Source of the DNA: an uncultured Bacteroidales bacterium
GTDB taxonomy: Bacteria > Bacteroidota > Bacteroidia > Bacteroidales > P3
NCBI GenBank assembly: GCA_900314725.1
Contig: OMWJ01000010.1
Location: forward strand, 63,156 to 127,155
Length of the DNA: 64,000 nt
Direction: 5' to 3'
Under the pieces are notes generated by a model. It had not been told where the DNA came from. It saw nothing but the letters and a program-made list of their open reading frames with translations, and made no database searches. Shown piece by piece: positions 8,170-55,836 of the stretch. Each line of letters starts with the position of its first letter. The first letter of the stretch is position 1. The translations under genes and the position numbers were made by a program.

Positions 8170-11100
8170 TTATTTTATAACTAACATTTTATTCATTTTT
8201 CTTATCTCATCTCCATTATTAGTAACTATTTCCACAACATAATAATAGATACCATTACCTATCATTCCTCCTCCATCAACTCTTCCATCCCAATGAATAG
8301 GAGTAAGATTATAGGTGTTTATATATTCATCAGCATTTATAGTTTTGAGTATTCTACCTTGGGCATTAAATATTTTTATTGTAGCAGACTTAACGTCATT
8401 AGCTTGATTAAACTTAAGAATTATATTAGTACCATCACTGAATGGATTAGGATAATTATAAGTTTCATATTCTTCTTTACCTGAATTCACAACCTTAAAA
8501 TGAATAGTTGCATCCGAAGAATAATTATAAATATTCCATACCTTAATAGAAAGAGTATGTTCTCCTTCTTCCAAAGAAGAAAATGGGTAAATAATATATC
8601 CTTTAGTTACATCTTGATCATCATAAACATAATAGTCATTAAGTATAAACGTATTTGCGGCATTATCCAGACGAGCGACAATGTCATGTCCAAGTCCTGC
8701 TCCTGCTATATTAATAGGTATACTATCCTTTATTACCGCAAAAAGAGTAGGATTCTCATCTGTTATCCCATAGTCAACAAAATTACTGTCATTTATATAC
8801 AAATCAACTATCGGTCTTGTTTCTATTGTATCTACATTTTCGTTAATTCCTCCAAGAACAAAATCATTGGTGTATCCTGCTGCATCAACACTTCCATCTT
8901 GTGCATAAAAACTAAGTTTTGCTCGTCCATAATTATAAGCAATATCTTTAGGAATTATGAAATTATATTCAAACTCTCCATTACTAACTTGTGCAAAACC
9001 TTTATGGAGCAAGTTCGTCTGCAATTCAAAAGTAAGCGTTCTGCCTATACCGGCATTATCTAAAGTTTGATAAGTTGTTTTTTTGTCAAACAGATATATC
9101 TTAACTTTTCCATTAAAGTCTTGTATCTTGTTCCCATTAAAATCAACCACTTCTGCCCTTATATACATCTTTGAAAGAGCATTAGATGTATCTATAGTCG
9201 TAAATCCTGAAATACTATCATCATAGAAAGAATTATTTATTTGTGTTGTTTTAATATTATATTTAGGTAAAGAAATTCTAAGTGCAGGATCTCCTAAAAG
9301 CGTTATACTCCTTTCTGCAGTCTGTAAATTAGTAGCATTTTTTGCATTCATCATCACTTCTCCGAAAGTGTAAGGTGTGCCATCTGTTTTTCGCATTAAA
9401 GCATACTTATGTAATGCTTGATTAATGGCGTTATTAGAGGCAATTTTTCGTGCTGCTGCTATAAGTGCTATAGCTGCTCCATTCTCCGAGAGAACAGCAT
9501 ACTCACCTGCAGCTTGTTTATCTACAAGGTCAAAACGTGCGAACTCACAAGTAGAAGTTATCATCAAAGGTAGTTTATTATAATTAGTCCATGAAGTTAT
9601 ATCAGACATTGTTATTAATCTTTCTCCACTCAAATGATCTGGAGAACCATGTCCAAGGTAATTAAACAACAAACAACCTTTGTTTATCCTATCATTAATA
9701 GCTTTACTTGCATCAGGATAAGTAGCTCCTGCTGAAGAGGTATATTCCTTGTAAGCATCTTGATAAACTTTTTGAATGTTTATATAGGGCTGTGTTTGGT
9801 CTATTTGTGTATAAATATGCTCAGCATTATCTATAAAATACATCTCGCTCAAATCGTCAGCATCATCAGAAGAAAGCATAACAAAATTTCGCCAATCTCC
9901 ATCTTCATTTTCCAACAAATCTTGTTTTGACATATATCTTTTAGCCTTATCAACTAATATCTCTGCTTCTTTTATTTCATTTACAGGAAATCTTCCCACA
10001 CCTATCATAAGAGTGTCATAAGTCCTATTCTCAGAATAATCCGACAAACAAGCAAGAACATCATCTGAAGTAAAAACATAGCCCACATTTCTGTATTCGC
10101 TTACTGATTGATAAGTAGGAATATAGTTATTGTTATAGCCAAGAATATTTTTATTATCAAAAGTTCCATCACCAAACAAAAGAACATTCTTTGGATTTTT
10201 ACCCTCTGAAACGTACTTATTATACATCATTCTAAGAAATTCTCTTATCGCTAAAAAATCTTTTTGACCTGAAGAAAACTCATTATAAACTTGCTCTACA
10301 TCTACAACCTCAACACTTATTCCATCATTTTGTCTATGTAAAGTTGCTAATTCATCAGCACTACTAAGAAATTTAGTATTACTTACTATAATCAAATCTG
10401 CTGGTTGCATAGCATGAAGATTTTGATTTTCCACTTGATTAACAAAAATTGGAGTAGCAAAGTTACTACCATTTACAACTACAATAGTTCTTATAGTATC
10501 GTTAGGAATAATGCAAAAGATATTATTATTTTCCTGTATTTTGTTACACATATAAGCATTATTAATATCTGTAACATCCCATATCATTGTATTAACATTC
10601 GGAGCATTGCTTATTTGATATCTTATCGAATTAGCAAGAGAAGGATTGTTGATAGAGAAAAATCTTAGATAACTATTATTAAGGATAAGGTTTTGTTTGT
10701 AATTTACAAGTATATAATTCAAATATGCTTTATCTGAAAAGTTTGCAGAGTTATACTGAATATTTATTGTACTGTTTGGAACAGAGATATTTTGCTGATA
10801 TTTCTTATTAACTTTTAGAGCTACTATATCTGAACTTGAAGTAGCTGAAGGGTACATATTTTCTAATTGCGTATTATTTAGTTTCACTACAAAACTAACA
10901 TTAGAAGCACTTGCTGTTGCTAAATCTAATTCTATTTGCGCAGGATAATCAGGAGATATATTTAAAAGATTTATTGGCACTGATAAAGTATTACTTGAAG
11001 GGGTCATTCTTTCTCCTACCCATGTTTTGCCTGCATTTAGCAAGTTTGTAAGTTCTCTCTTATGAAAAGAGTAATAAGGAGTTGTGGATATAGTCGTATC

Positions 11101-50190: not shown

Positions 50191-50263
<73 letters not shown>

Positions 50264-50271
50264 CATAAAGA

Positions 50272-50304
50272 AAGAGATTCTTTATTTGAAGAGTCTCTTT
50301 TTTT
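50272..50304 (+). terminator. Terminator after tRNA-Phe
   Basis: 11-bp stem AAGAGATTCTT / AAGAGTCTCTT (one G.U pair) with loop tatttg, running into a T-run. Confidence 0.7.
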
Positions 50305-50382
50305 GTATGATTAAGTTAATACAATTCTTCGCATCAATACAAAAGACACAAAAAACTCTATATCAAAACTTTAGGCTTATCC

Positions 50383-50488
50383 AAAAATGTCTTCGTTTTC
50401 GCAAAAAAAGAGTTGGTTTTAATTTTTTAAAACCAACTCTTTACACCCTAAACATCAAGAGTTAAAAAATTAAAACGAAGACTTTTTA
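50383..50488. repeat. Dispersed composite A-run/T-run mini-hairpin repeat, locus D (nested palindromic arrangement)
   Basis: The outer inverted repeat is gtcttcgtttt (50389-50399) / aaaacgaagac (50472-50482). The inner 13-bp palindrome is gagttggttttaa-tttt-ttaaaaccaactc (50410-50439). The shared 26-mer is at 50434-50459. Confidence 0.75.
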
Positions 50489-50683
50489 AAACACATAAAA
50501 CCAAAAACATTAACTTGCTTCATTTCATATACTTTTTTTTTACGGACAACTGTCTTAGTCGTTCATCTTTAATGTTCTTTCAATACTATTTATTTTGTAT
50601 ATCTGATATCTCTTTACTACTGTTCATAAACTTCTATTTTCAACATATCTGCCCTCTTAAATAAATTAATTAATTATAAGTAA

Positions 50684-52114
50684 TCAGAAAGTCAGAAATT
50701 GATTACACTTGACTTTCAAACCGCTGTCATAGTTAAACAATATATCAGAGTTAGGATATATTTTCTTTAATTCATTATAGATACTCAGTCTTCTTGCCTT
50801 ATCTATGTCGGAGTTATAATAGATAAACAACAACTTGTCATTCTTATGACTTGAGACAAAACACTCTCTACAAAAATAATCATCAAAAACTATAACACCC
50901 TCATAGTCTTTTAGTTCTATAGATACTTCATTATTTTTCTTATCGGTAAAAATCATTTTGGTTTGACTAAAGTTCAATATATCTGAAAAGTATAAATCTA
51001 CGGAATAGACAATCTTTTCTTGTGCGTCATCCAATTTCGTGGTATAATCAACAAACATTCCTTGTGAAAACAGAGGTATATTCATTGTTGGGATTAAAGC
51101 TGTAAAAGGAGAATCTGTCCCGTATTTCGGAAAAGAAAGTATAACTTGCTTGTCGTGTGTCGCCATATTAAGTTTTATAATATCGCAAGTATCTACACCT
51201 CTTCTTTGAGTAAAGATAATAAGACTTGTATTGTCAATGAAACTATGCTTGAAATTGGAATAATAATCTAATATGTTCAACTTATCCAATAGCATTATTA
51301 TACTTTTTGAATATTCAGGCGAAATTATCTTTTGATTTACAGATACATTTGTATCCAAAAGATGTTGTGTTTTTTTATAATCCTCATTGAGTTGGAATGC
51401 TATACTATCAACTAATTCCAAATCATAATCGTACAAATAAACTTTTGGCTCTATTGTATTGATAAAAGAAATATAGTTTTCATTACTTGAAAATGCATTA
51501 TATATGTCATAATAATGAAGCAATATAGAATTTCCTGCATAAATATTTTTTTGTTTAAGGATTTTATGATTTTGTATATCATACAATGAAATAATATATG
51601 ACTTCTCTTTATTAAAAACCTGACTTGACAATACAAGTTTGCCATTTTTGTAGCCTACAATAGTAGATAAACGTGTCTCTGGTTTTAGTTCTTTGAAATC
51701 ATAACAACTGTTGAATTCAAAATGTTTGTTTCTCTTGATATAAGTAATCAATCCTTTACCAAAAGAAATAAATAAGGTGTCATTAATGTAATAAACAGAA
51801 TTAGCTAATATCACGGGATAATAATAGGACGTATCATTATTCTCAGTAATATATGAAGACAATATATTATTTATACTATCTAATACTATAGTGTCTTCTT
51901 CTATAGTCGCAAGATAAATATAAGGAGTTTGCTCATATTCCTCCAGTAATAAAAGCCTTTCATCTGTGTTGGTGTTTATTTTTGCAATAGAACTATTGTC
52001 TGTTTCTCTAAAAAATAAATCAAAACTCTGCTTTTTCTCCTGTGCAACCGCATTATAAACAAGCAAAAGTATGCATACCAAAAAGCATGCATACTTTATG
52101 ATTAATTTATTCAT
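50684..52114 (-). CDS. Hypothetical secreted protein (476 aa), no recognised family; degenerate CxxC thioredoxin-like C-terminus
   Basis: Signal peptide MNKLIIKYACFLVCILLLVYNAVAQ. The body is Y/N/I/S-rich and beta-rich in appearance. The C-terminus has GVIVFDDYFCRECF...LLFIYYNSD. Confidence 0.6.
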   Translation of the reverse strand: MNKLIIKYACFLVCILLLVYNAVAQEKKQSFDLFFRETDNSSIAKINTNTDERLLLLEEYEQTPYIYLATIEEDTIVLDSINNILSSYITENNDTSYYYPVILANSVYYINDTLFISFGKGLITYIKRNKHFEFNSCYDFKELKPETRLSTIVGYKNGKLVLSSQVFNKEKSYIISLYDIQNHKILKQKNIYAGNSILLHYYDIYNAFSSNENYISFINTIEPKVYLYDYDLELVDSIAFQLNEDYKKTQHLLDTNVSVNQKIISPEYSKSIIMLLDKLNILDYYSNFKHSFIDNTSLIIFTQRRGVDTCDIIKLNMATHDKQVILSFPKYGTDSPFTALIPTMNIPLFSQGMFVDYTTKLDDAQEKIVYSVDLYFSDILNFSQTKMIFTDKKNNEVSIELKDYEGVIVFDDYFCRECFVSSHKNDKLLFIYYNSDIDKARRLSIYNELKKIYPNSDILFNYDSGLKVKCNQFLTF

Positions 52115-52176
52115 GGTAATATGTTTTCAAATTCAGTACTACGCAAATCCATTTCATAAACGCCATTTTAGAGGAA

Positions 52177-52560
52177 TCAATCTTTATCATTTCTCTCATA
52201 CCATCTATTTTTATAATCAGAATACAAGACAACATAATACTTAGTACTCGTATCATCTATTTTATTACAAGTGTATAAACCTATGTATTTAAATTGTTCT
52301 ACATTTGCTTTATGGCATACTTCATCAATAGCTCTTTCCATACTAAGACTATCGTATGGATAAAAGAGTACATTGATATCTCGTTGATTTCTCTTGGATA
52401 TTGTATCAAGAAATACTTTTGTTCCATTGTCAGACTTAGAAATAAATATTTCCCTATCTACATGTACAACATACGTACCTCTGACAAGCATTTGCTTGTC
52501 ATTGCTACATGACCATAACAATAAAAATGATGAGACGATAATTATTTTAACTATTTTCAT
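52177..52560 (-). CDS. Hypothetical lipoprotein (127 aa)
   Basis: Signal peptide with lipobox LLWSC. No recognisable domain. It lies 62 nt upstream of the 476-aa gene on the same strand. Confidence 0.55.
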   Translation of the reverse strand: MKIVKIIIVSSFLLLWSCSNDKQMLVRGTYVVHVDREIFISKSDNGTKVFLDTISKRNQRDINVLFYPYDSLSMERAIDEVCHKANVEQFKYIGLYTCNKIDDTSTKYYVVLYSDYKNRWYERNDKD

Positions 52561-52594
52561 AAAATTTAGTTTTTACGTGATACACATTCTACAC

Positions 52595-52602
52595 TACATT
52601 TG
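52595..52602 (+). promoter_or_regulatory. Candidate -7 box on the strand opposite the genes, 53 nt before element copy 1
   Basis: TACATTTG on the + strand. No + strand CDS follows. Confidence 0.3.
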
Positions 52603-52654
52603 CCAACAAGCTTACTATCTTTATTCTGTCTTTTACAATTTATTAATTATTCTC

Positions 52655-52820
52655 TCCTACTCATTTAAAGGCTTTTCGGAATCCTCCTTTTTATTTAAAC
52701 GTTATTTAATATGATTTATTTTCATTGCACAATGATAAGTGCGATTATGCGAACATTCAATGTATGTTTGACGCTATTACAATTGTTTTTCTTCACCGCT
52801 GTTCATATTTCCTCCTTTCG
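52655..52820. repeat. Conserved ~165-bp non-coding intergenic element, copy 1
   Basis: Aligns end to end with 53362-53525. Contains hairpin A (52724-52745), hairpin B (52749-52774) and two CCTCCTTT boxes (52683-52690, 52811-52818). Confidence 0.8.
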
Positions 52821-52850
52821 TGTTCTAAAAAATATTATATATATAAGTAC

Positions 52851-52895
52851 GCAAAAACGACAAAAGTTCTACACCGTTTTTGTAACTATTTTTTC
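52851..52895 (+). terminator. Weak candidate hairpin/T-run downstream (+ strand) of element copy 1
   Basis: cAAAAACG-15 nt-CGTTTTTg, then aactaTTTTTT. The stem is A/U-rich, so this is weak. Confidence 0.25.
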
Positions 52896-52907
52896 ATATT
52901 CTTAATC

Positions 52908-53342
52908 TTATATATTTATATTAAATGTTTCTATGAGCAATCCTTGTCTATATATTTCAACAGTATAATTACCTTGAGGTATATTTTTTATTATATAACT
53001 ATAAGTCCTTCCGCATATACAGTTCGCTTCATACGTACTTGGATTAATAGGAATCTCTTCTACATGCAACGTATCCGCAGTAATAGATACTTCTATATTG
53101 ATGCTTTCTATACTGCAATTAAAACTACCACTATTATTTATGGAGAGACTATTATCCTGTACTACATAGCCAAATTCAGATGTTGATTTATTATAGCAAC
53201 TACTAAAATAGGTTATTTTTCCAACTATACCTTTTTTAGAATCTTTTTCTTTGTCATCACTGCAACTAACGGTTGCTAAACCTAAATTTACTACTGCAAA
53301 GAATAGAAAAAGTATCTTTGCGAGATTTTCTAATTTCTTCAT
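52908..53342 (-). CDS. Hypothetical Cys-rich lipoprotein (144 aa)
   Basis: Signal peptide with lipobox ATVSC and five further Cys residues. No similarity to the 127-aa neighbour is visible. Confidence 0.55.
   Translation of the reverse strand: MKKLENLAKILFLFFAVVNLGLATVSCSDDKEKDSKKGIVGKITYFSSCYNKSTSEFGYVVQDNSLSINNSGSFNCSIESINIEVSITADTLHVEEIPINPSTYEANCICGRTYSYIIKNIPQGNYTVEIYRQGLLIETFNINI
53313..53320 (+). promoter_or_regulatory. Candidate -7 box on the strand opposite the genes, 42 nt before element copy 2 (inside the 5' end of the 144-aa CDS, antisense)
   Basis: TATCTTTG on the + strand. No + strand CDS follows. Confidence 0.3.
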
Positions 53343-53361
53343 TTTTTATGTTTTTTATTTT

Positions 53362-53525
53362 TCCTACTCTATTAAAGGCTTTTCGGAAACCTCCTTTTTA
53401 TTTAAACGTTATTTAATATGATTTATTTTCATCGCACGATGATAAGTGCGATTATGCGAAACATTCACTGGATGTTTGACGCTATTGCAATAATTTTTAA
53501 CTGCCATTCATATTTCCTCCTTTCG
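53362..53525. repeat. Conserved ~165-bp non-coding intergenic element, copy 2
   Basis: Aligns with copy 1. Contains hairpin A (53431-53452), hairpin B (53456-53482) and CCTCCTTT boxes (53390-53397, 53516-53523). Confidence 0.8.
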
Positions 53526-53554
53526 CATTATCAAAAAAAATGCTTTATGAATTT

Positions 53555-53612
53555 ATTTGCATTGCACGATAATAAGTGCAATTATGCGAAACGTCCATTC
53601 AGGAGACACTGC
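53555..53612. repeat. Partial third copy of the element core (hairpin A plus degenerate hairpin B)
   Basis: tttatttgcattgcacgataataagtgcaattatgcgaaacgtccattcagg aligns with tttattttcatcgcacgatgataagtgcgattatgcgaaacattcactgg of copy 2. Confidence 0.7.
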
Positions 53613-53707
53613 AAAAAGGGTAAAAACTTGCAGTTAAAAATCAATTATTTTTTCGAAAAGTTTTTAATCTATTGATTTATACAGAGAAAAATTCTTATTT
53701 ATTTTAA

Positions 53708-53761
53708 ATAAACAAGAAACTTATTCTTTGATAACTTTCTTTGTTTATGAACTTCTTTTTT
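53708..53761 (+). terminator. Candidate hairpin/T-run downstream (+ strand) of element copies 2-3
   Basis: Imperfect ~19-bp inverted repeat ataaacaagaaacttattc / gataactttctttgtttat, then gaacttcTTTTTT. Confidence 0.3.
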
Positions 53762-53868
53762 AATAAACATTCTTTAATAGATATTCTTGTACATTCGTGC
53801 GAAGCACGTTTAACCTGCCATGCTCGCCAAGTATCAATTCAAATGTTTTAGTTTTTGGTTCTTGTTTT

Positions 53869-53895
53869 GCGAAAGTCCATTCAGGACTTTGACGC
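53869..53895. repeat. Isolated hairpin-B-type module (fourth copy)
   Basis: gcgaaagtcc-attca-ggactttgacgc has the same GCG...GA-CGC frame as hairpin B, with a different but still complementary inner stem. Confidence 0.6.
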
Positions 53896-53924
53896 TTATT
53901 TTCTTCTAAAGAAAATGAACTAAT

Positions 53925-53967
53925 AAAAATAAAAAAAGTGTCTTGCAGAAAGACTACAAGACACTTT
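53925..53967 (-). terminator. Terminator after the C69 dipeptidase gene
   Basis: 11-bp perfect stem AAAGTGTCTTG / CAAGACACTTT, followed on the minus strand by TTTTTTTaTTTTT. Confidence 0.8.
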
Positions 53968-53988
53968 GTATATTATGTTTGATTAGAA

Positions 53989-55755
53989 TTATTCTCCTAA
54001 GTCTTTGATTACATCACCGTGGTCCTTTACTATCATTCTGTACCAATCAGCAGGATAAGCAGGTTGCATTGGAAATACTGCATCACCTTTTCTGAATCCT
54101 GTTTCTTCAAACTTGCCATCTTTTTCTTTCTTGATGTTGCCATCAATATATTTTACTAAAAGATAGTTGTATAAGTTTGACCATTCGTTGAATGTTTGTT
54201 CTGCTTTAGCAAGAGAGAATTTTGTTAGCTCATTTCTCATCTGGCTTTCAGTCATATTCTTTATTCTTGCATCCAATTTATTCACCTCTTCAACAAAGGA
54301 ATTCTCCAAACGAGATTGAACCTTTTGCAAATCTACGATCATATCACTCCAACGAGTATAGACAAAGTTAGATACCTGATTGAATTTCCAGAAAGCAGAT
54401 GTCGGAGAATATTCTGTCATAGAACCATTACCTTCTTTGAAGTTAATAGGTGTTTCATTTATGGAAGAATACATTGGAACATAGACAGTAGTGTAAGTGT
54501 CATCTACGCCAAACCAAAGAATACCTTTTGCTTTTGCAGGCATCCAACTGCGAGTCTGTGCAACAAAAGAGAAGCCTGTCTGTTGAGTTGAAGTAGCTCT
54601 TTCGTGAATGTATTTTTGTCCATCAACTTCCCAATTCATAGGTCTCCATCTGTAAGGACATTTGAAAGGACCTGCTCCCAAATCCTTAGACATATCCATA
54701 GGAGTGCCTTGATAGTAGTCGCGCATTAGGGCCATAGCTTCATTAACAGAAATCTTATGATCTGGTTTTATCCATAGTGGCATACGGTTCTTTAAGTTCT
54801 TACCCATAGCGTATGATTCATATTGTTTCATATTGCCATTGACTCTGTTGAACATAGCATATACTCTTGCTTCACATCCCCTTGCACCAGAGAAAGTCAA
54901 AGGAGCGTATGTGTCAGAGAAAGAAAAGTCTTCATCTTTACCGTTGTACCAGCCTTTTATTCTTGCGAACTCTGCAACATCTTCTGCATAGACTGTCTCT
55001 ACTTCAGGGCGGAAGATTTCTTTAAGATTTTTAGAAGAGATACTTACAAAAGATCCTTTCTTTTGCCAAGGGAAAGTAGTGATACGTGCCTGATTAGCAT
55101 GACCACAAACATATCCGTCAGGTATTCTTCTTGCAACCCACACAGCACCTTTAGTCCATTTTTTGTTGGCTTTTATGGATTTTACATTACCTTTCTTATC
55201 TTTTATTGTATCCATTACAGGTTTTCCTTTGCCGATAAGTTCCATAATCCAAACTTCATCACCGTCAGCAATAGAAAAACTCTCTCCTTCTGAAGCATAT
55301 CCGTATGTTGCCATAAATTCTGCGATGGTTTTTATAGCTTCTCTGGCTGTTTTTGCTCTTTGAAGAGTAAGATAGATAAGAGAGCCATAGTCAATACCAT
55401 TGCCTAAATCCCAGCATTCTTCTCTACCTCCGTATGTTGTTTCACCTATGGTAAGTCCCCATTCGTTCATATTTCCAACAGTAGTATAGGTTTGTGCTAC
55501 CTGCGGAATTTTGATAAGGGGTTTGCCGGTGTCCCATTCTATTACCTGAATCATAGTTCCTGCTGCATATTGTGCTGCACGAGTGTAGTACAATTCTCCA
55601 TAAAGGGTATGAGAATCAGCAGCGTATGTAATCATTGTTGAACCGTCTTTTGTTGCACCCTTAGTAAAAAGAAAATTAGTGCAAGCCTTGGTTTGAACTG
55701 TTGCTAACATAGTAGTAGCAACAAAAAGGATGATAAAAATGTTTCTTTTCTTCAT
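53989..55755 (-). CDS. C69 family dipeptidase
   Basis: 588 aa. A signal peptide is followed by the N-terminal nucleophile context KACTNFLFTKGATKDGS. Length and composition fit peptidase C69. Confidence 0.85.
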   Translation of the reverse strand: MKKRNIFIILFVATTMLATVQTKACTNFLFTKGATKDGSTMITYAADSHTLYGELYYTRAAQYAAGTMIQVIEWDTGKPLIKIPQVAQTYTTVGNMNEWGLTIGETTYGGREECWDLGNGIDYGSLIYLTLQRAKTAREAIKTIAEFMATYGYASEGESFSIADGDEVWIMELIGKGKPVMDTIKDKKGNVKSIKANKKWTKGAVWVARRIPDGYVCGHANQARITTFPWQKKGSFVSISSKNLKEIFRPEVETVYAEDVAEFARIKGWYNGKDEDFSFSDTYAPLTFSGARGCEARVYAMFNRVNGNMKQYESYAMGKNLKNRMPLWIKPDHKISVNEAMALMRDYYQGTPMDMSKDLGAGPFKCPYRWRPMNWEVDGQKYIHERATSTQQTGFSFVAQTRSWMPAKAKGILWFGVDDTYTTVYVPMYSSINETPINFKEGNGSMTEYSPTSAFWKFNQVSNFVYTRWSDMIVDLQKVQSRLENSFVEEVNKLDARIKNMTESQMRNELTKFSLAKAEQTFNEWSNLYNYLLVKYIDGNIKKEKDGKFEETGFRKGDAVFPMQPAYPADWYRMIVKDHGDVIKDLGE

Positions 55756-55836
55756 ATACTATATTTTTAATAATTAATTCAAAAAAATGAACAAGTATTT
55801 AAATAACGTTTATATATGTTTATTATTTTACACAAG

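Follow-up and report, generated by a model that had tools for sequence, protein, structure and literature searches.

A repeated leader ending in the DUF805b RNA motif at a lipoprotein locus of an uncultured Bacteroidales bacterium

Results

The repeated element and its modules

Two small genes, encoding lipoproteins of 127 and 144 aa, lie close together in the window (the whole 64-kb stretch of DNA that was analysed) and are accompanied by a repeated non-coding element; as the local genes are all on the minus strand, each copy is placed upstream of a lipoprotein gene. Copies A (~52640-52835) and B (~53347-53545) can be aligned over their full length, 165 of the 202 columns being identical, with 95% identity in the first 99 nt. 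A nhmmer profile built from A and B recovered both (E = 8e-62 and 1e-63, respectively) together with a partial copy C at 53551-53598 (E = 4.5e-9), and no copy beyond these three in the whole 64-kb window. The repeat with its coordinates and the partial third copy had been described in the first-pass annotation, and both are borne out by the alignment and the profile. The same holds for a hairpin module at 53869-53895, which proved to be a solitary relative of one of the leader hairpins (hp1), with the same flanks and a compensated stem. In total the window has A and B as full copies, C as a partial one and a single isolated hairpin. The features of the locus are as follows.

52177-52560, minus strand: 127-aa lipoprotein gene, not the cognate partner of leader A
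52561-52653, minus strand: junction after the orphan leader A, family-2 leader homology ending past ...AAAUUGUAAAA
52654-52689, minus strand: DUF805b of the orphan leader, copy A, 93 nt upstream of the 127-aa gene's ATG
52726-52743, minus strand: hairpin hp2 of copy A, closing pair a C.A mismatch
52749-52774, minus strand: hairpin hp1 of copy A
52777-52806, minus strand: mini-ORF of copy A, MNSGEEKQL and stop, the usual fifth-codon stop being GAA here
52811-52819, minus strand: GAAAGGAGG of copy A
52827-52834, minus strand: candidate -7 box TATTTTTT of copy A (inferred), with TTTG 17 nt upstream (52852-52855)
52908-53342, minus strand: 144-aa lipoprotein gene with family-1 signal peptide (MKKLENLAKILFLFFAV..VSCSDD)
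53343-53360, minus strand: A-rich stretch before the start codon, copy B (from sequence)
53361-53396, minus strand: DUF805b of copy B, ending 18 nt upstream of the 144-aa gene's ATG
53397-53432, minus strand: AT-rich linker of copy B (...AACGUUUAAAUAAA), between hp2 and DUF805b, kept in all lineage copies
53433-53450, minus strand: hairpin hp2 of copy B, CGCAC-N8-GUGCG
53456-53482, minus strand: hairpin hp1 of copy B, GCG UC AAACAU-loop-AUGUUU CGC
53497-53511, minus strand: mini-ORF of copy B, MNGS and stop
53516-53524, minus strand: GAAAGGAGG of copy B, extended SD-like sequence 4 nt before the mini-ORF ATG
53532-53539, minus strand: candidate -7 box TTTTTTTG of copy B, 5/6 match to TAnnTTTG (putative promoter)
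53563-53633, minus strand: partial copy C (nhmmer), with hp0 at 53609-53633, a damaged hp1 at 53586-53608 and hp2 at 53563-53580
53636-53677, minus strand: module M0 (AAUCAAUAGAUUAAAAACUUUU.GAAAAAAUAAUUGAUUUUU), which precedes most leaders
53869-53895, minus strand: solitary hp1-type hairpin D, GCGUCAAAGUCC-UGAAU-GGACUUUCGC, identical in locus L005

Read 5' to 3' on the minus strand, the modules follow one another as -7 box, GAAAGGAGG with the mini-ORF, the optional hp1 and hp2, the AT-rich linker, DUF805b, about 20 A-rich nt and the start codon. The part specific to the lineage consists of the Bacteroidetes-type promoter box, GAAAGGAGG with a four-codon mini-ORF and the two small optional hairpins. 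The hp1 of copy C is intact in the near-identical strain L004, hence its damage in the window is a 5-nt deletion. Hairpin D is flanked as hp1 is (GCGUCAAA...UUUCGC), its stem being one pair shorter on both sides, and M0 was found upstream of leaders in L002, L005, L010, L011, L016, L018, L020 and L021.

No long reading frame is conserved across the copies, as had been noted earlier. The plus-strand ORFs (MIYFH.TMISAIMR...) and the minus-strand mini-ORFs are present as previously reported, and the former were rejected as genes, since they extend across the optional hairpins and an indel interrupts them.

The DUF805b motif

The gene-proximal 36 nt of copies A and B correspond, on the coding strand, to the Rfam family DUF805b (RF02914), scoring 45.5 bits in copy B (E = 9.6e-10 over the window) and 40.2 bits in copy A, the acceptance threshold being the curated Rfam gathering score of 35.6 bits. 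The element therefore does match a known family, where the first-pass annotation had not recognised a known riboswitch, leader, IS terminus or attC site. An Rfam match had also been named there as grounds for abandoning the proposal of an element, and here it spans just 36 of the ~165 nt; the distal part, outside DUF805b, gave no Rfam match even at E = 5. DUF805b (clan CL00115) is a candidate cis-regulatory RNA of Bacteroidota found by comparative genomics (Weinberg et al. 2017, PMC5737381; DUF805 is not mentioned in the main text). A literature search found no paper on the mechanism of the motif.

The motif is named for its location upstream of genes for DUF805-domain proteins. The lineage copies resemble the Rfam motif in their CCGAAAA loop and UAA..GAGUAGG tail (UAA.AGAGUAGG), in their coding-strand position shortly before a start codon, and in their Bacteroidota host. 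They differ in the genes that they precede, which encode lipoproteins and cargo of the type IX secretion system (T9SS), with no DUF805 domain found by Pfam scans in the window genes and 10 downstream proteins. Furthermore, they have a mismatched fourth stem pair and one extra U relative to the model, and they form part of a leader of 130-190 nt, repeated and modular, which extends beyond the 35-nt Rfam model.

Scores above the gathering threshold were also obtained in L013, L010 and L017, and in an unrelated Cytophagales plasmid from Aureibacter (L022, 53.4 bits), the one genuine further DUF805b recovered by plasmid BLAST with the Rfam consensus, the other matches being due to chance. Paralogous copies ending in the tail GUGUGUAGG reach 26.1 bits, under the gathering score, and no DUF805b was reported at gathering level in L005-L007. 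In two distant Bacteroidota the motif precedes genes for a secreted Ig-like protein and a 33-aa Cys-rich peptide, and the linker sequence TTTAAAT.AAA is shared with the distant copy L017.

Of the four pairs in the DUF805b stem of the model (positions 2-5 with 18-21), the copies of this lineage form three and all have A.G at the fourth; in Aureibacter the stem covaries (G-C to A-U and C-G to G-C). The loop CCGAAAAGCC is invariant among the copies; for the tail, the window has AUAGAGUAGG or AAUGAGUAGG, and some paralogues have GUGUGUAGG. Covariation suggests that loop and tail pair in an H-type pseudoknot: over the stem and the proposed pseudoknot, four pairs are changed on both sides, and pair 10-35 (A4 alignment columns; Rfam model position 34) is U-A in nine cases, G-C in two and G-U in one. 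The observed covariation score was reached by 0 of 500 shuffles, with support drawn from three lineages plus the Rfam consensus and with a similar score when the 3' partners are shifted by +2 columns (0.138 vs 0.148).

Two readings of DUF805b as a promoter were rejected. For sigma-54, the GG-N10-GC spacing fits, but the flanking consensus does not; for an ECF factor, the bases of the would-be -35 (GGAAg) are the variable ones (ATT, TTT, TTC, ATG).

The distal modules

The sequence GAAAGGAGG occurs twice in the window, counting both strands, and both occurrences are inside the element. Its pairing with a generic Bacteroidales 16S tail, ACACCUCCUUUCU, which may differ from that of the host itself, has a predicted energy of -15.8 kcal/mol and ranks 2 of 127,968 windows. 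The organism does not use SD sequences, SD-like tetramers being found upstream of 2 of the 35 long ORFs of the window, and the upstream regions are rich in A/T and poor in G. In most leaders the mini-ORF encodes MNSS, MNSG or MNGS. The SD-like mini-ORF module is degenerate or absent in L002, L018, L027, copy 3 of L005, L008 and L012.

At the 5' edge of both copies there is a -7-like box, in each case 6 nt before CGAAAGGAGG, which may represent the promoter. A scan for sigma-70 promoters, uninformative for Bacteroidetes, returned 35 sites vs 32.6 expected. A 12-bp inverted repeat surrounds the promoter region of copy B; an invertible promoter was discarded, as the repeat is not kept in L010, L014 and L005.

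In hp1 one stem pair alternates between A-U and G-C according to copy type, and the closing pair of hp2 is C-G, U-A, U-G or C.A. Covariation, which had been put forward as a check, is weak in these two additional hairpins, with 2 of 16 pairs altered on both sides; the wobble pairs are mostly consistent with an RNA of the coding strand. Both hairpins are missing in many leaders that otherwise appear functional. In L025 the family-1 gene has an ordinary TAACTTTG promoter with hp1 upstream of it, so that hp1 may not be transcribed with the gene there.

Folding of the whole region provided no consistent sign of a large structured RNA, the stability of copy A being not unusual (z = +1.8) and that of copy B similar on either strand (z = -3.4 and -2.7). 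The terminator scan found no intrinsic terminator (GC-rich hairpin and U-run) at hp1, hp2 or DUF805b, its sites being solely after the C69 gene, after the ppiD gene and within the start of a 476-aa ORF (52066-52097).

A family of leaders with unrelated downstream genes

Pattern scans and protein look-ups in metagenomes and MAGs yielded 28 leader copies in 20 loci. The cluster members are named Bacteroidales bacterium MAGs, and L001-L003 belong to Bacteroidaceae or Bacteroidales MAGs. Wherever the downstream sequence is complete, 27-35 nt separate the leader from the ATG of a gene whose product has a signal peptide, the sole exception being the orphan copy A, in the window and in L004. The 19 distinct downstream proteins have largely unrelated mature parts, with Pfam domains META, Por_Secre_tail, N_BRCA1_IG or none, and two conserved lipoprotein signal peptides often accompany the leader. 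Leader and signal peptide are conserved as one continuous stretch, beyond which similarity drops sharply: family 1 has an identity of 0.84-0.93 across leader and signal peptide and of ~0.45-0.57 past the lipobox. The 127-aa and 144-aa proteins, earlier described as unrelated, indeed gave no mutual BLASTP match between their mature parts. The additional remark that the repeat was not a by-product of gene duplication is misleading, since what is repeated is the 5' region shared by paralogues of a multigene family, in which conservation extends across the signal peptide.

A strict 24-base hp1-hp2 pattern matched 3 loci in 185,579 representative genomes, the window's own genome not being among them, and no match was obtained in viral contigs with three patterns (hp1-hp2 and two DUF805b-tail patterns). 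A profile of the family-1 signal peptide retrieved three short proteins, which gave three extra loci.

An orphan leader and strain mosaicism

Copy A is an orphan leader that precedes an unrelated gene because its own gene start was deleted. In L009, L010, L014 and L015 the same leader type continues directly into ATGACAACAAAA..., and the gene that follows encodes a family-2 lipoprotein which is missing in the window. The last ~35 nt of the junction match the sequence that natively precedes the 127-aa gene in L010; there this gene has no separate leader and comes after a gene for a 171-aa family-2 lipoprotein and a terminator hairpin.

Strain differences extend to both the leader modules and the genes that follow. 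Preceding the 144-aa gene, which is identical in the two strains, the leader is long in the window and short in L005; leader A in turn shares ~150 nt with L005 at 100% identity, followed by scattered SNPs and a different gene. This mosaic arrangement points to recombination.

Discussion

In our judgement the element is probably the 5' leader of a multigene family, containing a cis-regulatory RNA and working as a portable front end for expression and export. The leader would comprise a probable promoter and a 5' UTR of about 130-190 nt, which in an uncultured rumen or gut Bacteroidales lineage precedes numerous genes that are unrelated to one another and encode surface lipoproteins or T9SS cargo, with GAAAGGAGG and the mini-ORF close to the predicted 5' end. 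As DUF805b is the sole module present in every copy, we infer that it is the functional core. It would fold into a small hairpin, probably closed as an H-type pseudoknot between the loop (U/G)CC and the tail GG(A/C), and may affect in cis either the initiation of translation or the stability of the mRNA for the next gene downstream, providing one control common to all the genes that carry it. Homologous recombination or gene conversion between paralogous leaders could have moved this front end between genes and reshuffled its modules. Among the roles suggested in the first-pass annotation (a structured mRNA element, an sRNA gene or a small mobile element), the structured mRNA element fits best, given that the repeat is on the coding strand, directly 5' of genes, and ends in a catalogued motif.

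A function at the level of DNA only, in which a promoter/operator cassette was duplicated, hp1 and hp2 are palindromes for a dimeric regulator and DUF805b is a promoter or regulator site, appears rather unlikely. Conservation within the lineage is mainly one of sequence, with one annotated stem pair mismatched in all copies; hp1-hp2 is always 32-36 nt upstream of the AAAGGAGG block in an AT-rich, promoter-like setting; the divergent intergenic region of L025 has hp1 placed before a perfect TAACTTTG -7 box; and the hairpins are optional, as operators often are. However, the arms of hp1 vary and yet stay complementary (AAACAU/AUGUUU, AAACGUCC/GGACGUUU, AAAGUCC/GGACUUU), whereas a protein site would keep its sequence, and pairing in DUF805b is likewise maintained through change, in the Aureibacter stem and in the three pair types of the loop-tail pair 10-35 (A4). 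Moreover, no TAnnTTTG is found at a consistent distance inside or after DUF805b, and the positions of the would-be ECF-type -35 (GGAAg) are exactly the variable ones. It is far less probable still that the distal part (promoter box, GAAAGGAGG, mini-ORF, hp1 and hp2) is a separate gene for a small RNA or a small peptide, and we give this almost no credence. A promoter-like box at its 5' edge, the two stem-loops after the mini-ORF, and a preserved mini-ORF start with several differences at third codon positions (AAT/AAC, AGC/AGT, GGT/GGG) would accord with such a gene; against it, there is no terminator-like hairpin with a U-run between hp2 and DUF805b, the mini-ORF stop is not conserved (peptides of 4, 9 or 15 codons), the module is missing or degenerate in several leaders, and Rfam has no match in this part.

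The strain-variable gene content between the C69 peptidase gene and the tRNA and queE genes, with the element before three small genes in L005 and two in the window, raises the question of a recombination or mobility site, either attC-like or rAID-1-like, that shuffles cassettes, or of hp1-hp2 as a miniature mobile insertion. Strain breakpoints fall inside the leader, hp1-hp2 behaves as a discrete block of ~52 nt that is present or absent in at least four different left-hand contexts, and rAID-1 clusters have repetitive intergenic sequences reminiscent of integrons (bioRxiv 10.1101/471110). We hold this reading to be improbable, and the earlier suggestion of a small mobile element is not sustained: terminal inverted repeats and target-site duplications are absent from the element, and among the genes called in L004-L007, Pfam showed no integrase or recombinase in the 10 kb to either side. 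The copy number is low (3 matches to the strict pattern in the representative genomes and 2.5 copies in 64 kb), the absence of hp1-hp2 is, at one of two positions, a replacement of sequence and not a clean excision, and the breakpoints are spread along the leader, as homologous recombination predicts. An attC site was rejected, as the hp1 flanks GCGTCAAAC / GTTTCGC do not fit the RYYYAAC ... GTTRRRY cores and, unlike attC, which is 3' of a cassette ORF, the conserved block adjoins the next start codon and not the preceding stop. A MITE or IS remnant was also discarded, the ends carrying a direct repeat (AAAGGAGG) rather than an inverted one, with no extra copies in the window.

The proposed leader has parallels in systems of other bacteria. 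In the upstream homology box (UHB) lipoprotein families of Borrelia burgdorferi, related to ospE/ospF, a conserved upstream region and lipoprotein leader peptide are common to genes with differing mature parts, and recombination occurs between family members, as proposed here (Marconi et al. 1996 J Bacteriol 178:5615, via PMC10016077). Borrelia belongs to an unrelated phylum, the sequences show no similarity, and its genes are on cp32 prophage plasmids, while those described here are chromosomal. The Borrelia UHB is a promoter and operator region and is not known to contain a structured RNA motif.

The GAAAGGAGG module recalls two uses of extended SD sequences, from which it differs in being degenerate or absent in some leaders. 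The mRNA of Bacillus thuringiensis cry3A is stabilised by a STAB-SD of the sequence GAAAGGAGG, and the module here likewise stands a long way before the main start codon and close to the predicted 5' end (for the term, see PMC4113751). In Bacteroidia, extended SD sequences are regulatory elements in rpsU/bS21 autoregulation (PMC9976891, PMC7797042, PMC13000453). The likeness lies in a 9-nt match to the generic 16S 3' tail in an SD-less organism, at an energy below the ~-13 kcal/mol class of rpsU; the difference is that here it stands before a four-codon mini-ORF and not a ribosomal protein gene. With rAID-1 (bioRxiv 10.1101/471110) the locus shares strain-variable arrays of small genes in a single orientation, repeated intergenic sequences and a Bacteroidales host, whereas no XerD-family recombinase is present within 10 kb, the array has just 2-5 genes, and the proteins are lipoproteins with surface-export-type N-termini in which no immunity-protein domains were detected.

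DUF805b itself is a catalogued orphan RNA motif, and what is added here is the lineage-specific modular leader around it. No fewer than a dozen mutually unrelated genes follow the motif in this lineage; they encode surface lipoproteins and T9SS cargo, none of them with DUF805, and any functional hypothesis for the motif must account for this wider gene association. The locus shows how surface lipoproteins vary from strain to strain in an uncultured rumen Bacteroidales lineage while one leader-plus-signal-peptide cassette is reused, and the paralogous leaders with and without accessory modules are a natural set for reporter experiments. An SD-like sequence of the rpsU class before a four-codon ORF is unusual where the ribosomes of the phylum normally ignore SD, and as a candidate for another use of SD pairing in Bacteroidia it can be tested.

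A broader conjecture, which we regard as decidedly unlikely, is that DUF805b is a 35-nt H-type pseudoknot for general control of translation or stability in SD-less Bacteroidota, joined here with the rpsU-class extended SD, the mini-ORF and the signal peptide in a front end that recombination grafts onto unrelated genes. If so, the whole strain-variable set of surface lipoproteins would be under one post-transcriptional signal, possibly a bS21-free ribosome pool. Most genes downstream of DUF805b here encode exported or surface proteins.

A repeated element, probably a leader, upstream of lipoprotein genes

The repeat described by the first-pass annotation is genuine: its two full copies align end to end with 165 of 202 columns identical (95% identity across the first 99 nt), and a profile built from both matches copies A and B at E = 8e-62 and 1e-63. 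The only other match of the profile in the 64-kb window is the claimed partial third copy (53551-53598, E = 4.5e-9). The small ORFs listed earlier were all found, the reported fourth hairpin is a lone copy of one element module, and the "nearly identical first 75 nt" are the gene-proximal end of the element. Genes in the neighbourhood are all encoded on the minus strand, on which each copy lies 5' of a lipoprotein gene.

Features of the neighbourhood (window positions)
50684-52114, minus: gene for a 476-aa protein
52177-52560, minus: 127-aa lipoprotein gene
52640-52835 (approximate), minus (coding): copy A, full
52689-52654, minus: DUF805b of copy A, 40.2 bits
52834-52827, minus: -7-like box of copy A, TATTTTTT, TAnnTTTG match 5/6, TTTG 17 nt upstream
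52908-53342, minus: 144-aa lipoprotein gene
53347-53545 (approximate), minus (coding): copy B, full
53396-53361, minus: DUF805b of copy B, 45.5 bits
53539-53532, minus: -7-like box of copy B, TTTTTTTG, TAnnTTTG match 5/6
53563-53633, minus: copy C, with hairpin hp0, damaged hp1 and hp2, directly upstream of the promoter-like box of copy B
53869-53895, minus: solitary hairpin
53989-55755, minus: C69 peptidase gene

Read along the coding strand, both full copies consist of, in order, a box resembling the Bacteroidetes -7 box TAnnTTTG, a Shine-Dalgarno (SD)-like sequence with a mini-ORF, the hairpins hp1 and hp2, a linker and the RNA motif DUF805b. The box lies 6 nt upstream of CGAAAGGAGG in both copies, and GAAAGGAGG is followed, after a 4-nt gap, by the ATG of the mini-ORF, which reads MNSGEEKQL* in copy A and MNGS* in copy B. 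The hairpins take the forms GCG UC AAACAU-loop-AUGUUU CGC (hp1) and (C/U)GCAC-N8-GUGC(G/A) (hp2), and the AT-rich linker between hp2 and DUF805b ends in AACGUUUAAAUAAA.

The Rfam scan at gathering thresholds placed DUF805b (RF02914, cis-regulatory; gathering score 35.6) in both copies, where the first-pass annotation had recognised no known riboswitch or leader; the remainder of the element matched no further family, even at E = 5. The distance from the end of the motif to the following ATG is 18 nt at the 144-aa gene and 93 nt at the 127-aa gene.

Related leaders and the proteins behind them

Scanning 185,579 representative genomes with the strict hp1-hp2 pattern yielded only three loci, each in an uncultured Bacteroidaceae or Bacteroidales MAG, and one of these MAGs is ruminal. 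A search keyed to the DUF805b variant of this lineage retrieved 14 metagenome contigs, and exact-protein look-ups recovered this locus from other strains (L004-L007) as well as three further family members; members of the cluster carry the name "Bacteroidales bacterium" (MAGs). The resulting set holds 28 leader copies at 20 loci. In every copy with complete downstream sequence, the ATG of a signal-peptide protein follows 27-35 nt after the end of the search pattern, the sole exception being copy A, in the window and in the near-identical strain L004.

Downstream lie 19 distinct proteins, whose mature parts, orthologues aside, are unrelated by BLASTP; Pfam assigned META, Por_Secre_tail (twice), N_BRCA1_IG or nothing, and never a DUF805 domain in the window genes or downstream proteins scanned. 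Among their signal peptides two families recur, family 1 (MNKIENLAKILFLFFAV..VSCSDD) and family 2 (M(TT)KI(K/Q)KLAILFMAITIS..TSCN(D/N)EE), and the acidic residues following the lipobox cysteine resemble the Bacteroidetes surface-export signal. Mean pairwise identity in family 1 is 0.84-0.93 from leader through signal peptide and falls to about 0.45-0.57 just past CSDD, so the conserved unit is leader plus signal peptide, fused to unrelated mature parts. Exported proteins, instead of DUF805 proteins, are a new gene association for this motif. One family-2 lipoprotein behind a leader (310 aa; locus L013, about 175-1107) carries at its C-terminus a long hydrophobic stretch rich in Gly, Ala and Ile (…GNIVTCALYTAIGDVIGGAACYYGIHGLNVIAALHG…AFASAIGACVGW) resembling a glycine-zipper membrane segment, unlike the remaining family members.

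The best-supported reading makes the element the 5' leader common to a paralogous front end for exported proteins, with DUF805b, an already known but uncharacterised motif, at its core; we infer its mechanism and transcript boundaries. The extended, modular and lineage-specific leader around the motif is new. Among the roles first proposed, a structured mRNA element fits best; a free-standing sRNA gene and a mobile element are rejected on present evidence. No recombinase was called within 10 kb on either side in L004-L007. An attC site and a terminator are likewise rejected on present evidence.

Structure of DUF805b and the optional hairpins

Variation in DUF805b is scarce in this lineage, where the annotated fourth stem pair is A.G in every copy. 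More distant matches precede a secreted Ig-like protein gene (L017, 48.1 bits) and, on an Aureibacter tunicatorum plasmid (L022, 53.4 bits, the best seen), a 33-aa Cys-rich ORF 23 nt downstream; the Aureibacter stem has two compensatory changes, G-C to A-U and C-G to G-C. Loop bases ahead of GAAAA (positions 10-12, Rfam model numbering) can pair with positions 32-34 of the tail. The Rfam consensus and Aureibacter have G-C at pair 10-34, this lineage U-A, L017 G.U and locus L002 C.A; in copy B the complementarity grows to UUUCC/GGAAA. In a 13-sequence alignment 4/9 pairs change on both sides and 0/500 shuffles reach the observed covariation score, with a +2 slide scoring nearly as high as the proposed register because the tail is A-rich. 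These data suggest an H-type pseudoknot, a possibility that may be new for DUF805b. The Aureibacter motif and ORF lie in L022 1501-1660 (pAT2, NZ_AP025307.1 133780-133940); the ORF, MEKKETIIENLLAERKDLGLGHCSNCGHCSASF, is unannotated, is followed by two hypothetical genes and is possibly a modified-peptide precursor.

Both hp1 and hp2 are true inverted repeats and optional modules of the leader. Of their cells, 91% are paired; among 17 distinct copies only one pair in each hairpin changes on both sides, and the hp1 arms vary among copy types with complementarity kept. Non-Watson-Crick cells are mostly G.U on the coding strand, a bias that speaks mildly for a coding-strand RNA and against a protein-binding palindrome. 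At L025 (9860-10003; GCA_017394975.1, JAFPWK010000004.1) a gene with a family-1 signal peptide and no DUF805b has a perfect canonical TAACTTTG -7 box about 30 nt before its ATG, and a lone hp1-type hairpin (one G.U pair) lies about 90 nt upstream of that box in the divergent intergenic region.

The SD-like sequence

An SD-like tetramer precedes just 2/35 long ORFs of the window, upstream regions being A/T-rich, and the organism resembles other Bacteroidia in this respect. Within this SD-less organism the SD-like mini-ORF is unusually strong, a further new feature: GAAAGGAGG occurs twice in the window (both strands searched), each time inside the element, and pairs with a generic Bacteroidales 16S tail, which may differ from the host's, at -15.8 kcal/mol (rank 2 of 127,968 windows). 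Bacteroidia ribosomes ignore SD sequences except those without bS21, and rpsU is characterised by pairing below -13 kcal/mol (PMC9976891; PMC7797042; PMC13000453). GAAAGGAGG could stabilise ribosome binding near the 5' end or sense specialised ribosomes, kept as a side hypothesis because the motif is degenerate or absent in several leaders.

Mosaic leaders and the orphan copy A

The leaders show three architectures, and no module other than the linker and DUF805b occurs in all of them.

Leader architectures
Architecture 1: SD-mini-ORF to DUF805b, span 75-79 nt
Architecture 2: hp1-hp2 inserted, span 128-130 nt
Architecture 3: hp1-hp2 present, SD-mini-ORF absent

In the window the 144-aa protein is preceded by a long leader with two hp1-hp2 blocks; the identical protein of L005-L007 has a short one, without hp1-hp2 and with a different promoter-proximal segment, yet the 260 nt 5' of these leaders match at 100%. 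Compared with its L005 counterpart, leader A of the window is 100% identical over ~150 nt and then shows eight scattered differences (hp1, hp2, linker); the gene behind it in L005 encodes a different, 160-aa META-domain lipoprotein. The hp1 of copy C is intact in L004 but lacks 5 nt in the window (53586-53608); L004 (about 9790-9830), compared with window 53516-53545, carries an 18-nt segment, GATAATGCGAAAGGAGGAA, twice in tandem, so that a second extended SD-like GAAAGGAGG stands next to the first. Such mosaicism fits an exchange of sequence between paralogous leaders by homologous recombination or gene conversion.

At L009, L010, L014 and L015 the same leader as A has a tail ...GAGUAGGA.A.AAUAAUUAAUAAAUUGUAAAAU that continues directly into ATGACAACAAAA, a family-2 lipoprotein gene; in the window the homology ends after ...AAAUUGUAAAA. 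L010 has the order leader, 171-aa lipoprotein gene, terminator hairpin, 127-aa gene, and the native upstream sequence of its 127-aa gene (GAAUGUGUAUCACGUAAAAACUAAAUU) equals that in the window. Judged by this break and the L010 arrangement, a deletion has left copy A as an orphan leader.

Neighbouring intergenic sequence

The strain-variable segment runs from the C69 peptidase gene to a tRNA and queE (50191-50263, 50264-53988; L004-L007), flanked by conserved housekeeping genes. It holds the 144-, 127- and 476-aa genes in the window and L004, and genes for 144, 160 (META/DUF4847), 165 (Por_Secre_tail), 165 and 83 aa in L005. Minus-strand 53721-53745 retains the final ~8 codons and stop (...KKVIKE*) of an otherwise missing T9SS C-terminal-domain gene; since the same sequence terminates an intact ORF in L002, the 647-nt gap between the C69 and 144-aa genes is partly a deletion scar.

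A module, GTTCATTTTCTTTAGAAGAAAA, recurs after gene ends or terminators (53899-53920, minus; also L001, L003 and L005 11740-11760), followed by hp1 or by a GAAC....GTTC hairpin plus ...GAACCAAAAAC; the nearby stretch gcacttcgttacacttcgtacgg / cgtgcttcgcacgaatgtac is likewise repeated between loci. In the C69 promoter region (55799-55816), AAACGTTATTTAA is the reverse complement of leader linker TTAAATAACGTTT (18 nt, 94% complementary), and on the coding strand a TTTTTTTG -7-like box follows ~20 nt downstream. The match could mark the site of a shared regulator or have arisen by chance in AT-rich DNA.
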